This document shows positions 633-58,358 of a DNA stretch of 64,000 nucleotides, one piece after another. Below the pieces are notes generated by a model. It saw nothing but the letters and a program-made list of their open reading frames with translations. It made no database searches and was not told the origin of the DNA. Position 1 is the stretch's first letter. Every line of letters begins with the position of its first letter. Origin of the DNA: Patescibacteria group bacterium (GTDB lineage: Bacteria; Patescibacteriota; Microgenomatia; Levybacterales; UBA12049); NCBI GenBank assembly GCA_035457005.1, contig DATICB010000011.1, positions 4,098-68,097 on the forward strand, written 5' to 3'. A program made the translations under genes and the position numbers.

Positions 633-1856
633 ATTTCTCAGTGAAAAAGGGGAGATTTTGTATGTGGGGAAAGCGAAAAATCTTAAAAACCGTGTCAGCT
701 CCTATTTTGCTAATCCCAACATACTAGTGGGCAAAACCGCTGTTTTGGTATCCCAGGTAAAAAAATTCGCATTACCATTGTTGAGTCAGAGCTGGAATCA
801 CTCCTTCTAGAAGCAGCTCTTATTAAAAAGCACACGCCAAAATATAATATTCGCCTCACAGACGGAAAATCATATCCACTTATTCGTATTACTACAAAAA
901 CACCTTTTCCTGCAGTTCTTACTGCCAGACGACAAGACGACAATAAATCTGAATACTTTGGCCCCTATCCCAATGCCACAGCAATGCATAAAGTGCTTCG
1001 ACTTCTTCGTCGAATTTTTCCTTATCAATCTGTTTTAAATCATCCTAAAAAAATTTGTTTGTATCATCATTTAGGACTGTGTCCGTGTCCGCCAACATTT
1101 GCGACGAGTGAACAAAAACAGCAGTACAAAAAAACAATCAAACATATTATTGGATTTTTGGAAGGAAAATCAAAATCTGTTGTAAAAGAATTGGAGAAAG
1201 AAAGAAGTACGTATGTAAAATCTGAGGAATTTGAAAAAGCAGAAGACATACAAAAACAACTCGATGCAATTGCTCGTGTGACCGAACCATTTACCAATCC
1301 TTTTGAGTATGTAACTAATCCCAATCTTGTAAGCGATGTTCGCGAAAATGAAATGAAAACATTACAGCAAATTTTAAAAGATAACGGAATTATTATTGAT
1401 CTTCCAAAAAGAATTGAATGCTATGACAATTCCAATATTCAAGGTACCAACCCAACATCATCGATGGTAGTTGCAACAAATGGGGAAATGGACAATAGTC
1501 AGTATAGAAAATTTAAAATTAAATCGGTGAAAGGACCAAATGATTTTGCCTCAATGCAAGAGGTCTTGCAAAGACGTTTGAATCACGCGGAATGGCCATA
1601 TCCACAACTTCTTGTTGTTGATGGTGGAAAAGGACAGGTGAGTGCAGCAAAAAAAGTTTTGGATGGACTGCAACTTTCACTTCCACTCATTGGTCTTGCC
1701 AAAAGGGAAGAAACAATTATTACAGAAAGTCTGGATGAAATACATATTCCCAAATCTTCTCCAGCGCTGCAGCTTATCATGAGGCTTCGAGACGAGGCAC
1801 ATCGGTTTGCCATTACCTTTCATAAATCACTTCGCAACAAATCTACTTTCTCGTAA
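562..1856 (+). CDS. uvrC: Excinuclease ABC subunit C (UvrC), interrupted by a -1 frameshift in an A7 run at 759-765
   Basis: N-terminal GIY-YIG (PGVYEF...[18 protein letters not shown]) in frame 1. The continuation [38 protein letters not shown]...YFGPYPNA...[13 protein letters not shown]...[10 protein letters not shown]...[12 protein letters not shown] is in frame 0 and matches UvrC along its length. Confidence 0.8.
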
Positions 1857-19547: not shown

Positions 19548-19799
19548 ATGTATTTTGTATACGTTCTACAAAGTATGAAGGATGATAATTTTTATACAGG
19601 TTTTTCAGACAATTTGAAAAGAAGATTGAGCAAGCATAATACAGGTCTTGTCACTGCTACAAAACATAGACTTCCATTAAAACTTATTTACTACGAATTT
19701 TGTCTCAACAAAACAGATGCACTCCATAGGGAGATCTACTTAAAAACATCTTGGGGTAAAAAATACATTAAAAACAGATTATCAAATTATCTCATGTAG
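19548..19799 (+). CDS. GIY-YIG nuclease-family mini-protein
   Basis: YFVYVLQS...FYTGFSDNLKRRLSKHN GIY-YIG core; 83 aa. Confidence 0.75.
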   Translation: MYFVYVLQSMKDDNFYTGFSDNLKRRLSKHNTGLVTATKHRLPLKLIYYEFCLNKTDALHREIYLKTSWGKKYIKNRLSNYLM

Positions 19800-19818
19800 T
19801 TTTGCGCTGATTGATAAG

Positions 19819-19881
19819 GCCACAGTTGGATAGATGCAATCATCCAACGTGGCTCCGTTAGATGCAAAGCTATCTAACGGA
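19819..19881 (+). promoter_or_regulatory. Two consecutive hairpins in the leader of the DUF378 gene; the second 3' arm abuts/overlaps the Shine-Dalgarno sequence
   Basis: gccacagttggat...atccaacgtggc and tccgttagat-gcaaagct-atctaacgga, then GGAGGGGG and ATG at 19896. Confidence 0.4.
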
Positions 19882-19895
19882 GGGGGTGATTACTA

Positions 19896-34272: not shown

Positions 34273-34291
34273 TTTTGCGCGCCCGGAGGGA
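34273..34291 (-). repeat. Degenerate partial copy (16 of 18 nt) of the 3' end of tRNA-Arg(TCT)
   Basis: gcgcgcccggagggattcc here versus gcgctcccggagggactcg at 34660-34678. Confidence 0.5.
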
Positions 34292-34307
34292 TTCCCTTCG
34301 GTTCATT

Positions 34308-34628
34308 TCATTCACTCAGGGTAAACTTCTCATCTCTCATGAGAGCTTCAACAAACTCAGTGCAAGTATTAATTCCAAGTATACCATCTATTAACATTTG
34401 TTTCTTTGCGTGACTCCAGCCTTTTAATTGTTGTTCTCTCTTTGCTGCTTGGTACTTATTAACGTACTTTTCTGCATACTTAAATCTAAGATCAGAAAAT
34501 TTTTTTGTGAACAAAGATTTTTTATTTTTGTGTTTTTTAAACCGTGGAATAATATCATCTGTTATCCCAACATAAAACATTTTCTGATCGCAAAGAAGAA
34601 TGTAAGTAAACCAAGCAGAACGACTCAT
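34308..34628 (-). CDS. GIY-YIG nuclease-family mini-protein
   Basis: WFTYILLCDQKMFYVGITDDIIPRFKKH GIY-YIG core. Confidence 0.7.
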   Translation of the reverse strand: MSRSAWFTYILLCDQKMFYVGITDDIIPRFKKHKNKKSLFTKKFSDLRFKYAEKYVNKYQAAKREQQLKGWSHAKKQMLIDGILGINTCTEFVEALMRDEKFTLSE

Positions 34629-34659
34629 TGTAATTGCTTGCACTGAGCTTGCCGAAGTG

Positions 34660-34733
34660 CGCTCCCGGAGGGACTCGAACCCCCGACCACATCGTTAGAA
34701 CCGATATGCTCTATCCAGCTGAGCTACGGGAGC
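34660..34733 (-). tRNA. tRNA-Arg (anticodon TCT)
   Basis: Acceptor gctcccg/cgggagc, anticodon loop guUCUaa, T-arm ggggg-ttcgagt-ccctc. Confidence 0.8.
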
Positions 34734-34737
34734 AATG

Positions 34738-34809
34738 AGCGGGTTATGGGATTCGAACCCACGACACTCTGCTTGGAAAGCAGATGCTCTACCACTGAGC
34801 TAAACCCGC
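34738..34809 (-). tRNA. tRNA-Gly (anticodon TCC)
   Basis: Acceptor gcgggtt/aacccgc, anticodon loop uuUCCaa, discriminator U. Confidence 0.85.
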
Positions 34810-34894
34810 ACTTCGTCGTTTCACTCCTCAGTGTAAACACGTTTGACGCTAAGTATAAGTGCTTGCTACTTCCTTGTCAAAACAAGCGAATGTG

Positions 34895-34968
34895 TCGGGG
34901 ACAGAAGACTCGAACTTCCGACCTCACGGTCCCAAACCGCGCGCTCTAGCCAACTGAGCTAGTCCCCG
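34895..34968 (-). tRNA. tRNA-Pro (anticodon TGG)
   Basis: Acceptor cggggac/gtccccg, anticodon loop uuUGGga, discriminator A. Confidence 0.85.
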
Positions 34969-35243
34969 TTCTGCAAGGCAGAACTTATCTCTTTACCATA
35001 TTCTGCCAAAATTTTTCTTAATTTATATCCAACTCCTGATTTCAGGAATTTTTCTCTTTTGTCTGTACAAGTTTTACAATACAGTTGTTCAAAATACACA
35101 ATCTTCCAAGGTCTATACGCCTTTGTAAATTTTGATAGGCCACTATTGTGCTCCTTTAGTCTAACCTGAACACTTTTTATTGTTTGTCCAACGTACGTCT
35201 TATTTTTCTTTGTTAAACTTTGCAGGATGTATACTTTGTACAC
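34959..35243 (-). CDS. GIY-YIG nuclease-family mini-protein (its stop overlaps the 5' end of tRNA-Pro by 10 nt)
   Basis: YKVYILQSLTKKNKTYVGQTIKSVQVRLKEHN GIY-YIG core. Confidence 0.7.
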   Translation of the reverse strand: MYKVYILQSLTKKNKTYVGQTIKSVQVRLKEHNSGLSKFTKAYRPWKIVYFEQLYCKTCTDKREKFLKSGVGYKLRKILAEYGKEISSALQNGD

Positions 35244-35298
35244 ATCTATAGTTTAGCAAATCTTCCTCCTGAGAAAATTCTCCTCTGGAGAAGTGCCG

Positions 35299-35317
35299 AA
35301 GGAGGGAATCGGTCACA
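35299..35317 (-). repeat. Partial direct copy of the tRNA-Leu 3' end (T-loop/acceptor, gtgccgaaggagggaatcg)
   Basis: Identical 18-19 nt at 35439-35457 inside the intact tRNA-Leu. Confidence 0.55.
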
Positions 35318-35435
35318 ACTCGCCTTTGGCGGTCGCGACCCCGCCTCCTTCATCTTGCCTTCGGCAGATTCAGTCCGGCTTTCGATTCCACTGCTCTCAG
35401 CACGAATATTTCTGTCCAACAGACAAAAATATTCC

Positions 35436-35521
35436 TGGTGCCGAAGGAGGGAATCGAACCCACACGACATTGCTGTCAAGGGCTCTTAAGGCCCCCGTGT
35501 ATACCATTTCACCACTTCGGC
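35436..35521 (-). tRNA. tRNA-Leu (anticodon TAA), class II with long variable arm, CCA encoded
   Basis: Acceptor gccgaag/cttcggc, anticodon loop cuUAAga, long variable arm, 3' ...ggcacca. Confidence 0.8.
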
Positions 35522-53949: not shown

Positions 53950-54201
53950 TTATAAACCATTAATCAAAGCTTCTTTTTTGCTTTTAGGCAATTGTTTTAT
54001 TTCCCATTCGCGCTTTAAAGCTTCACTTTTTGTTGCACATTCCTCTGTATACACAAGTGCAAAACTATTAAATGCTTTTAAATATTTTGCTGATTCATAA
54101 TTTTTCTTTCTGTGCTGAGTTAGTCTTTTTTCCAAATCATTTGTTTGACCCGTGTAGAGCGTATTTGCAGATGTCCGAAGAATATAGACAGTATATGTCA
54201 T
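53950..54201 (-). CDS. GIY-YIG nuclease-family mini-protein
   Basis: TYTVYILRTSANTLYTGQTNDLEKRLTQH core. Confidence 0.7.
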   Translation of the reverse strand: MTYTVYILRTSANTLYTGQTNDLEKRLTQHRKKNYESAKYLKAFNSFALVYTEECATKSEALKREWEIKQLPKSKKEALINGL

Positions 54202-54235
54202 ATACTCAGTATACAACTACTACAACCACAATTGA

Positions 54236-55966: not shown

Positions 55967-56072
55967 ATTTTTAGTATGAGAAACTACTGCTGTTGTGTCA
56001 ATGAGCAGAGGAGAAAGATAAACGGTCCAAAAGGCAGACTAGAGATATTCTGCTTAATTCATTTTTTCTGTG

Positions 56073-56143
56073 CTGGAAGGCCTGGATTCGAACCAGAATA
56101 AACAGATCCAAAGTCTGTTGTCCTACCATTAGACGACCTTCCA
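56073..56143 (-). tRNA. tRNA-Gln (anticodon TTG), U1:A72, G73
   Basis: Acceptor uggaagg/ccuucca, anticodon loop cuUUGga, T-arm ctgg-ttcgaat-ccag. Confidence 0.8.
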
Positions 56144-56147
56144 ATAT

Positions 56148-56390
56148 TTAATCTTTTAACAACACCTTAAGTTTATTACCACCTTTATATGATTTCAATT
56201 CTATTTCCCTTAATCGCGCTTTTTTATAATTTTCAAACTCTTCTGTATAAACGAGAGAAAATGGCTTTCTCTTTTTCGTAATTGAAACTCCACCCTTATT
56301 GTGTTTCTTTAAACGGTTCTGAATATCTTTAGTTATTCCGATATAATAACCATTGTCTAATTTGCTTTGGATTACATAAACCCAAATCAT
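56148..56390 (-). CDS. GIY-YIG nuclease-family mini-protein, 4 nt from the tRNA-Gln 5' end
   Basis: IWVYVIQSKLDNGYYIGITKDIQNRLKKHN core. Confidence 0.7.
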   Translation of the reverse strand: MIWVYVIQSKLDNGYYIGITKDIQNRLKKHNKGGVSITKKRKPFSLVYTEEFENYKKARLREIELKSYKGGNKLKVLLKD

Positions 56391-56397
56391 ACAAAAA

Positions 56398-56470
56398 AGT
56401 CTGTTGTCCTATTTACTCCGCTTAGCGGAGCCATTACCCCGCTCAGCGGGGCGAGGACGACCTTCCAATA
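56398..56470 (-). repeat. Degenerate copy of the 5' half of tRNA-Gln; the D-loop is replaced by a 45-nt insert with two GC hairpins
   Basis: aagtctgttgtcct...gacgaccttccaata matches 56111-56146; insert ctccgcttagcggag / ccccgctcagcgggg. Confidence 0.55.
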
Positions 56471-58051: not shown

Positions 58052-58082
58052 TGAGCGGGCGATGGGAATCGGACCCACTACC
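58052..58082 (-). other. tRNA-like 3' fragment (T-arm-like gggtccgattccc plus acceptor-like cgcccgc-t), no complete cloverleaf found
   Basis: Hand-folded. No matching 5' acceptor strand or anticodon arm within 100 nt. Confidence 0.25.
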
Positions 58083-58358
58083 TTCTCCTTGAAAGTTGCG
58101 GGTTGATCTCCAACATGACCTTTCTTAGCTTCATAATAACAACAGGGGGTAGGTGTGTAAATAAGTGGATATTAGTAAGTACAGTATCAATCCATACCAA
58201 AATTTACTCGAAGCTAAAAACCTTGGAAAATACTGGAAATGAAACTCTTTTTATATGTGCGGATTTATTCAACTCTTTTTTTCATTTTGAAGCTAGACTA
58301 CATAGAAAAATGTCAACTGAATTGACTTTTTTTACTGTGACGGAAAACTCAACTATTC

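Follow-up and report, generated by a model that had tools for sequence, protein, structure and literature searches.

The stretch of DNA described here, 64 kb from a Patescibacteria group bacterium (the window, which is the analysed sequence of the source genome), carries a tRNA-Leu(UAA) gene whose 3' end is present twice. The two copies enclose 126 nt, and they are followed by a stand-alone GIY-YIG nuclease gene and the genes for tRNA-Pro(UGG), tRNA-Gly(tcc) and tRNA-Arg(tct). All genes from tRNA-Leu to tRNA-Arg lie on the minus strand (Table 1). The exact 19-mer GTGCCGAAGGAGGGAATCG occurs twice on the plus strand, at 35293-35311 and 35438-35456, with starts 145 nt apart. Read in tRNA sense, it corresponds to positions 66-84 of the 86-nt tRNA-Leu(taa), extending from C56 of the T-loop to one base beyond the discriminator. 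The BLAST E-values (1.6e-5 for the whole window, 7.7e-7 within +/-1.5 kb) indicate that the repeat is not a chance match, and a chance origin was ruled out at the latter value. An earlier, sequence-only reading had reported an exact copy of the tRNA-Leu 3' end downstream of the intact gene. The copy is real, while the positions given (35299-35317 and 35439-35457) were off by 6 and 1 nt and the spacing of 120 nt has to be replaced by the measured 126 nt. Neither ARAGORN nor Rfam matched the distal region as a second tRNA or pseudo-tRNA, even at E-values up to 10.

Alignment of the window with orthologous loci (alignment A2, loci L001, L004 and L008) showed a 145-nt segment that is present in the window only, with clean homology on both sides and an insertion point exactly in the T-loop of tRNA-Leu, at GTT|CGA. 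The inserted 145 bp consist of 19 nt of tRNA tail and 126 nt of unique sequence. The present tRNA-Leu takes its last 19 nt and its CCA from the proximal copy of the repeat and from the bases at the start of the insert. A 145-bp segment without an open reading frame (ORF) has thus been inserted in the T-loop of tRNA-Leu(UAA), and with the proximal copy the tRNA is complete and normal. The distal 19-nt copy is the displaced equivalent of this tail, still joined to the old terminator-like hairpin; a hairpin homologous to UUCUCCAGAGGAGAA directly follows tRNA-Leu in 10 of 16 related loci. The encoded CCA of tRNA-Leu (35436-35438, GGCACCAGG) also arises through the insertion, and neither the orthologous tRNA-Leu genes nor the distal copy encode one.

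No ORF was found between the two 19-nt copies, and BLAST and nhmmer detected no other copy of the 126-nt body in the window or in 149 related loci (1.2 Mb). The segment is highly structured: its predicted fold has a z-score of -7.3 alone and -6.9 together with the tRNA, far better than shuffled sequences. A perfect-looking hairpin directly 3' of the tRNA is followed by an imperfect reverse complement of the tail (the anti-tail), which in the folds is able to pair with either 19-nt copy. Further downstream, GAAGGAGG is complementary to CCUCCUUC of the distal copy; after it come a hairpin and then the tail copy. By eye, UUCGUGCUGAGAGCAGUGGAAUCGAAAGCC resembles the anti-tail stretch of 61-62-nt inserts found at tRNA-Leu(cag) in L016 and at tRNA-Leu(taa) in L018. 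The inserts in L018 and L028 differ in sequence and lie at the same T-loop site of tRNA-Leu(taa). With the window there are three different inserts, and the gene has therefore been hit repeatedly at this site. L028, filled, and its empty counterpart L021 have the tRNA-Leu tail and the downstream hairpin in common and make a clean pair. A group I intron was rejected, because the insertion is in the T-loop and not in the anticodon loop, measures 145 nt, is flanked by a repeat of exon sequence and matches no Rfam intron at E-values up to 10.

The sequence-only reading had associated the 19-nt repeat with the GIY-YIG gene. This did not hold: the copies enclose 126 ORF-less nucleotides, the gene lies outside, and both the coordinates and alignment A2 exclude that the repeat brackets it. 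Its overlap with tRNA-Pro by 10 nt, also described earlier, was confirmed. The last 10 nt of the ORF are the first 10 nt of tRNA-Pro, and the stop codon TAG forms U8-A9-G10 of this tRNA. In 9 other non-redundant loci tRNA-Leu(taa) is followed after 20-67 nt by the GIY-YIG gene and then by tRNA-Pro(tgg). Since orthologous loci show this gene order without the repeat, repeat and gene are two events of different age, and the gene is an older resident of the tRNA operon, separate from the insertion. It was present in every locus examined, these loci having been fetched with that same gene.

Table 1. Features of the tRNA-Leu to tRNA-Arg region and of the tRNA-Gln locus (positions in the window)
Feature	Position	Strand	Evidence
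tRNA-Leu(UAA), intact, 86 nt	35436-35521	-	ARAGORN; Rfam tRNA 55.9 bits; alignment A2
Proximal 19-nt copy, belonging to the working tRNA-Leu	35438-35456	-	exact match
Unique insert body, 126 nt, ORF-less, missing from aligned orthologous loci	35312-35437	-	alignment A2
Perfect-looking hairpin GAAUAUUUUUGUC...GACAGAAAUAUUC, directly 3' of tRNA-Leu	35404-35434	-	inverted repeat I3; folds
'Anti-3'-end' GUGCUGAGAGCAGUGGAAUCG, 21-nt imperfect reverse complement of the 19-nt tail	35383-35403	-	folds
GAAGGAGG, complementary to CCUCCUUC of the distal copy	35344-35351	-	fold; comparison with A4
Distal 19-nt copy, still attached to the ancestral downstream flank	35293-35311	-	exact match; alignment
Terminator-like hairpin UUCUCCAGAGGAGAA, then U-run	35278-35292	-	
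GIY-YIG nuclease gene, stand-alone, 94 aa, Slx1/UPF0213 type	34959-35243	-	Pfam PF01541, E 7e-12
tRNA-Pro(UGG/tgg)	34894-34968	-	
tRNA-Gly(tcc)	34737-34809	-	
tRNA-Arg(tct)	34659-34733	-	
GIY-YIG cassette on tRNA-Arg(UCU/tct)	34276-34658	-	covariance model R1 at 34273-34343, E 3.7e-11
Hairpin arms of the tRNA-Arg cassette	5' arm 34637-34657; 3' arm 34346-34366	-	
GIY-YIG ORF of the tRNA-Arg cassette, enclosed by the hairpin arms	34308-34643	-	
Core A of the tRNA-Arg cassette	34297-34334	-	
Displaced copy of the tRNA-Arg 3' end, 17/19	34276-34294	-	
5'-type tRNA-Gln arrangement	56148-56467	-	5'-half copy, GIY-YIG ORF, then intact tRNA-Gln
tRNA-Gln 5'-half copy, up to the anticodon	56396-56467	-	positions 1-12 at 56456-56467, 19-34 at 56396-56411
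GIY-YIG ORF, ending 4 nt before intact tRNA-Gln	56148-56393	-	
Intact tRNA-Gln	56072-56143	-	

Short inserts with tail repeats were found at many tRNAs across the related loci, and inserts of 60-145 nt recur at dozens of them. Several of these inserts and the 3' end of the tRNA-Arg cassette in the window have a motif in common, GAUGAGAAGU-UU-AYCCUGAG-N5-6-CGAAGGRA, referred to as core A. A pattern scan gave at least 135 matches in at least 120 metagenome loci, the near-invariance of the ~34-nt core being partly set by the search pattern; viral contigs gave no match. Among the 135 matches listed, 84 lie no more than 200 nt downstream of a tRNA on the same strand, and none lies beside a tRNA on the opposite strand. 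The tRNAs concerned are those for Leu, Asp, Ser, Lys, Gln, Arg, Tyr, Glu, Pro, Thr, Cys, Met, Trp, Gly and Ala. The order within a unit is constant: a strand of 5-7 nt complementary to the 3' strand of the T-stem, the core, and the tRNA sequence from about position 57-59 to the discriminator. The core thereby lies inside a T-arm-like stem, followed by the tRNA 3' end. The counterpart of this outer stem in the tRNA-Leu insert is GAAGGAGG.

Compensatory changes support the outer helix in 6 of 8 pairs (88% of cells paired, compared with 76% in shuffles and 29-62% with the partner slid). The inner helix has one variable pair (C-G 68, U-A 16, U-G 15, C-A 1), and the first hairpin of the units is rich in G-U pairs. 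The G-U pairs in the inner stem and first hairpin indicate a structure on the tRNA-sense strand, either as RNA or as single-stranded DNA; this bias is restricted to these two elements, the outer stem having no excess of G-U over A-C (20 vs 28). The 5' strand of a unit equals the T-stem of the resident tRNA for at most 5-6 nt, never reaches the variable loop, and often has better complementarity than the real T-stem. A covariance model derived from 52 units recovered the tRNA-Arg cassette in the window (34273-34343, E 3.7e-11) and nothing else convincing there.

A protein-coding function of core A was rejected, as no reading frame survives the two loop lengths (5 and 6 nt) and the hairpins that are inserted in some units. 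Hammerhead and other known small ribozymes were dismissed for want of an Rfam match, and the hammerhead CUGA..GA / GAAA core, a box C/D K-turn and hairpin-ribozyme loops do not, by eye, fit the covarying stem. No Rfam family matched core A at any threshold. In searches of the window and unit-rich loci with Rfam 15, tRNAs were the only matches at the gathering score, and neither the insert nor core A gave anything relevant at relaxed E-values. Furthermore, a miniature inverted-repeat transposable element or classical transposon was rejected: no terminal inverted repeats were found, and the repeats at the flanks are of variable length (5 to 21 nt) and identical to the 3' end of the unit itself.

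Units with core A also occur in tandem, with three copies each in L114 and L079 and two in L034, L041, L047, L120 and L144. In the arrays at L114:5877-6116, L079:6567-6802, L034:1876-1973 and L041:1732-1828 a unit recurs every 63-64 nt (short form) or 101-103 nt (long form), always with the same tRNA tail at its end. The loci L030, L034 and L041 contain tRNA genes in dense arrays. One unit was detected at three non-tRNA sites (twice in L032, once in L118), and other units lie off tRNAs in L037, L043 and L050. These are preceded by a mere 5-8 nt equal to the unit's own 3' end, which indicates that a unit moves together with its tail and lands after tail-like sequences. The unit in L038 carries a distal copy and stem from a tRNA-Gln allele different from that of the resident tRNA, suggesting that it was imported from a different genome. 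The inner hairpin of core A (GUUUACCCUGAG..CGAAGGG) was also seen solitary, in intergenic positions far from tRNAs (L023:5395-5429, L020:3719-3738, L021:8716-8740), and may be an independent small module.

About 10% of the units, among the matches listed, contain a GIY-YIG ORF of the Slx1/UPF0213 type. The 120 motif-selected loci listed (788 kb) hold 36 GIY-YIG ORFs, 12 of them in or against a unit, several of these 12 being one element seen in different samples. GIY-YIG was the sole ORF found inside the units examined, and no recombinase was seen in any of them. The tRNA-Arg cassette of the window and the units in L038, L040 and L071 have a common layout of tRNA, ACUUCGGCAAGCUCAGUGC, ORF, complementary arm (..CACUGAG..GUUGAAGU), core and tail copy. 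This order of the arms places the ORF in the loop of the first hairpin, with its 3' end reading into the conserved region. L055 carries at tRNA-Arg(tct), where the window has the cassette with ORF, a version lacking the ORF. At its two mismatches the distal tRNA-Arg copy of the window is closer to the tRNA-Arg tail of L055 than to the resident tail.

All five GIY-YIG ORFs of the window match PF01541 above the curated cut-off (E 7e-12 to 2.5e-18). They encode proteins of 81-111 aa with a single nuclease domain, and the other four are 30-39% identical in pairwise comparison to the 94-aa protein from the Leu-Pro interval. Homologues of the latter with 56-77% identity are encoded at the same position in other Microgenomates-type genomes, and an NCBI record from a metagenome-assembled Patescibacteria genome is 100% identical to it. 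Y5, Y17, G19, R28, H32 and E64 are invariant among the paralogues and 13 homologues. The Tyr, Tyr, Arg, His and Glu among them presumably correspond to the catalytic set of I-TevI, and from these residues and its fold the nuclease is likely to be active. The AlphaFold model of the 94-aa protein has a confidence (pLDDT) of 90, with the Slx1 nuclease domain as top fold match (Foldseek E 5e-4; BH0048 and EF2693 also among the matches), and a profile search against PDB gave Slx1 (E 7e-4) and EF2693 (E 4e-3). The C-terminal PHD/RING zinc finger of Slx1 proper was not found. With 81-111 aa and the nuclease domain only, the proteins are UPF0213-like rather than orthologues of Slx1. TIGR01453 scored 23 bits against a cut-off of 56, and NCBIfam and PADLOC gave nothing above threshold. 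In another part of the window, the ORF at 984-1856 (+) encodes only the RNase H-like endonuclease domain of UvrC. A separate ORF of 194 aa (48-632, +) is located 350 nt upstream of it; a split or interrupted UvrC is possible at 48-1856.

That three of the five GIY-YIG genes of the window touch tRNAs had been noticed in the sequence-only reading and was borne out: one overlaps tRNA-Pro, one follows tRNA-Arg(tct) after 15 nt (GTG start at 34643) or 30 nt (ATG at 34628), and one ends 4 nt before tRNA-Gln. Three of five genes within 45 nt of a tRNA compare with 4.5% for random placement (P 8.6e-4). The genome-wide tally of distances proposed along with that observation was made in a partial version, covering the window and 22 non-redundant related genome loci, and an enrichment was found. 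Of 37 GIY-YIG genes, 29 lie within 100 nt of a tRNA, compared with 13% at random, in comparator loci that are tRNA-rich and were picked by homology, not sampled randomly. When the genes used to fetch the loci are excluded, the proportion is 8 of 15 (P 2.2e-4). The two tRNA-distant genes of the window (19548-19799 and 53950-54216) have only 10-14-nt tRNA matches beside them, which is chance level. Directly after the former, at 19815-19885 (+), two hairpins lie side by side, and their loops (..GGAUAGAUGCAAUCAUCC.. and ..UUAGAUGCAAAGCUAUCUAA..) are related.

The further claim that partial tRNA duplications go along with the tRNA-touching genes was supported, and two of these genes are bracketed by such duplications. 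A search for additional partial tRNA copies found these at tRNA-Arg(tct), where the copied 3' end brackets the GIY-YIG gene, unlike the repeat at tRNA-Leu, and at tRNA-Gln, where the duplicated part is the 5' half. Inside the latter copy two GC-rich hairpins of about 19 nt flank the D-loop UAAUGG. L013 has the same tRNA-Gln arrangement with a different insert, of 36 nt. The extents of the duplicated parts indicate breakpoints in the T-loop (Leu, Arg) and in the anticodon loop (Gln). A tandem pair of GIY-YIG genes lies upstream of tRNA-Asn at L027:9475-10311, where the 5' end of tRNA-Asn is also copied exactly in three separate places (28, 20 and 17 nt); this looks like nested or repeated insertion. 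An orphan 3' half of a pseudo-tRNA, from the anticodon arm to the acceptor end, is located in an intergenic region of the window (58053-58100, -). Its nearest relative is tRNA-Gly(tcc) (22/26 over T-arm and acceptor), and neither a GIY-YIG gene nor an intact tRNA is near it. Between tRNA-Pro and tRNA-Gly a strong sigma-70-like promoter match (TTGACA-17-TATACT, 11/12) was detected at 34852-34880 (-), indicating that the four tRNAs may not be a single transcription unit.

By analogy with known systems we propose, and rate as about an even chance, that the units are tRNA-targeting mobile elements common in Patescibacteria, spread by nuclease-triggered copy repair, and that the tRNA-Leu insert is one of them. 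The class would comprise elements that lie immediately 3' of a tRNA, end with the tail of that tRNA from the T-loop onwards and contain a stretch complementary to this tail; about a tenth of the members would hold a stand-alone Slx1/UPF0213-type GIY-YIG gene in a hairpin loop. As in the case of T4 SegB, the nuclease would break the DNA of the tRNA gene in the region of the T-arm or anticodon-arm hairpin, and repair of the break would copy an element-bearing template. The tRNA-tail copy of the element would provide homology for the repair and at the same time keep the tRNA functional. Units without ORF, the tRNA-Leu insert among them, would either be non-autonomous copies that depend on resident nucleases acting in trans, or be remnants left by decay. 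Since the enzyme is Slx1-like, it may plausibly recognise a hairpin or cruciform in the DNA instead of a long sequence.

Several observations weigh against this proposal. The tRNA-Leu insert is not matched by the core-A covariance model R1 and has no detectable relative in the 1.2 Mb of related sequence; its place in the class is drawn from architecture and a by-eye 'family B' likeness, not from sequence homology. With its stable synteny and its conservation, the Leu-Pro GIY-YIG gene behaves like a host gene. Moreover, neither Pfam nor the structure model revealed a DNA-binding domain as in known GIY-YIG homing enzymes in these proteins of 81-111 aa. The intact T-loop in the proximal copy should still be cleavable, although this may explain the tandem arrays, and the mechanism leaves unexplained how a unit gains stem and tail for a new type of tRNA. 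Alternatively it might be that the relatives have lost the 145 bp by recombination between the repeats, which is less parsimonious.

The insert might instead be a trailer RNA serving the host, in which the fold of tail, anti-tail and tail copy controls 3' processing, termination or folding of the tRNA, the GIY-YIG proteins being housekeeping nucleases merely riding in tRNA operons. The very stable fold and the alternative pairing of the anti-tail with either copy would fit such a role, as would the strand-specific, G-U-tolerant pairing of core A and the long-conserved position of the Leu-Pro gene. Being located between the tRNA and the terminator-like hairpin, the insert would be co-transcribed with tRNA-Leu. 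However, presence and absence vary between close relatives, most of which have no insert at all, and many different sequences occupy one position. Units also occur in tandem and at non-tRNA sites, and terminator-like hairpins before some of them would keep these out of the tRNA transcript; we therefore regard a host function as unlikely. Somewhat less probable still is a scar of integrase-mediated integration, left when the interior of a phage or island in an att (attachment) site from T-loop to 3' end was deleted and 126 nt remained between attL and attR. A direct repeat from a loop to the tRNA end (T-loop, or anticodon loop for tRNA-Gln) is the footprint of tyrosine integrases, and Williams is reported to have described in 2002 elements of this kind at T-loop and anticodon-loop sublocations. 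The dispersed units with flanking identities of 5-8 nt resemble secondary att sites, and the tandem arrays recall integron cassette arrays. Against this, there is no ORF between the repeats, and no integrase or recombinase domain was found in the tested set, 20 of the larger ORFs of the window. Elements on a scale of 60-145 nt at dozens of tRNAs, with conserved non-coding cores, never contain an integrase, GIY-YIG being the only ORF ever found within them.

It is improbable, though conceivable by analogy with the omega RNAs of TnpB and IscB, that the nuclease works with the structured RNA of the element, the core being the scaffold and the tRNA-tail copy the guide or homology selector. This would be a minimal RNA-directed homing system targeting tRNA genes, unrelated to Cas, TnpB and IscB, with the tRNA-Leu insert as a copy that has the guide only and no ORF. 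The 3' end of the ORF overlaps the conserved structured region, which is directly followed by 16-19 nt identical to the target; units sit after sequences matching their own 3' end, including partial matches of 5-8 nt; and the protein itself lacks a DNA-binding domain. Conversely, the would-be guide is engaged in the outer stem with its first 6-7 nt, this stem lacks a bias of G-U over A-C, and the catalytic domain of about 90 aa has no known RNA-binding surface. An artefact of assembly or a chance match has a negligible probability. The contig is metagenome-assembled, but the E-value of 7.7e-7, boundaries coinciding with the tRNA end and the T-loop, flanks that align cleanly to orthologous loci and like duplications in many independent assemblies all speak against it.

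If the units are indeed mobile elements targeting tRNA genes, ultra-small bacteria with single-copy tRNA genes would host a large population of miniature selfish elements, which target the most conserved DNA of the cell without destroying it, as each brings a spare tRNA end. The widespread, functionless UPF0213/YhbQ-type GIY-YIG proteins would gain a biological context. Stray tRNA fragments and tandem 'tRNA-tail' repeats, which can mislead tRNA annotation in metagenomes, would be explained, and the near-invariant ~34-nt motif would become searchable and testable. The SegB paradigm of a GIY-YIG enzyme reading the T-psi-C motif would widen from one phage to a bacterial radiation. The core also raises the question whether a bare nuclease of 90 residues takes its specificity from nucleic-acid structure or from RNA.

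In the full-text literature searched, we found no description of GIY-YIG genes at Patescibacteria tRNA genes, of the core motif or of mini-elements duplicating tRNA tails; searches for RNA-guided GIY-YIG enzymes and for partial tRNA duplication in the candidate phyla radiation did not reveal these elements, either. The same literature gave no established function for bacterial UPF0213/YhbQ proteins, and we know of no reported link of these proteins to tRNAs or mobile elements. The UPF0213 proteins (YhbQ, YazA, BH0048, EF2693) also consist of a single domain of about 90 aa and are, with Slx1, the best matches in sequence and fold. Slx1 differs in having a zinc-finger domain and in needing Slx4, whereas the proteins of the window have no zinc finger.

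The closest precedent is SegB of phage T4, a GIY-YIG homing endonuclease of the free-standing kind, whose gene lies in the T4 tRNA cluster and whose 27-bp site includes an 11-bp T-psi-C stem-loop motif (PMC2330249). In our case, too, GIY-YIG genes lie among tRNA genes, and the T-psi-C motif is the site of the tRNA-Leu and tRNA-Arg breakpoints; the spread of gene and flanks by break repair, as with SegB, is what we propose for the units. The proteins described here, putative nucleases, are bare catalytic domains closest to Slx1/UPF0213, whereas SegB has about 221 aa, roughly twice their size, and a DNA-binding region. To our knowledge SegB leaves no duplication of tRNA parts and has no associated conserved non-coding core. 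Prophages and islands integrating at tRNAs likewise produce a direct repeat from a loop to the gene end and supply a replacement tRNA end. These, however, span kilobases and carry an integrase, whereas the units of 60-400 bp have a core of about 34 nt in a T-arm-like stem and GIY-YIG or nothing as cargo, no integrase having been found. The IS200/IS605 elements with TnpB offer an analogy only: there, too, the nuclease ORF overlaps at its 3' end with a structured RNA that continues into sequence identical to the target, miniature copies lacking the ORF are abundant and the structure is strand-specific, but the units have no TnpA, TnpB or common sequence, and the nuclease folds are unrelated. Among known kinds, the system resembles free-standing homing genes of the Seg type and elements that integrate at tRNAs. 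What appears to be new is that a bare UPF0213-type nuclease is combined with a near-invariant structured core in a T-arm mimic, with a tRNA tail carried by the unit itself and with abundant copies that lack the ORF.

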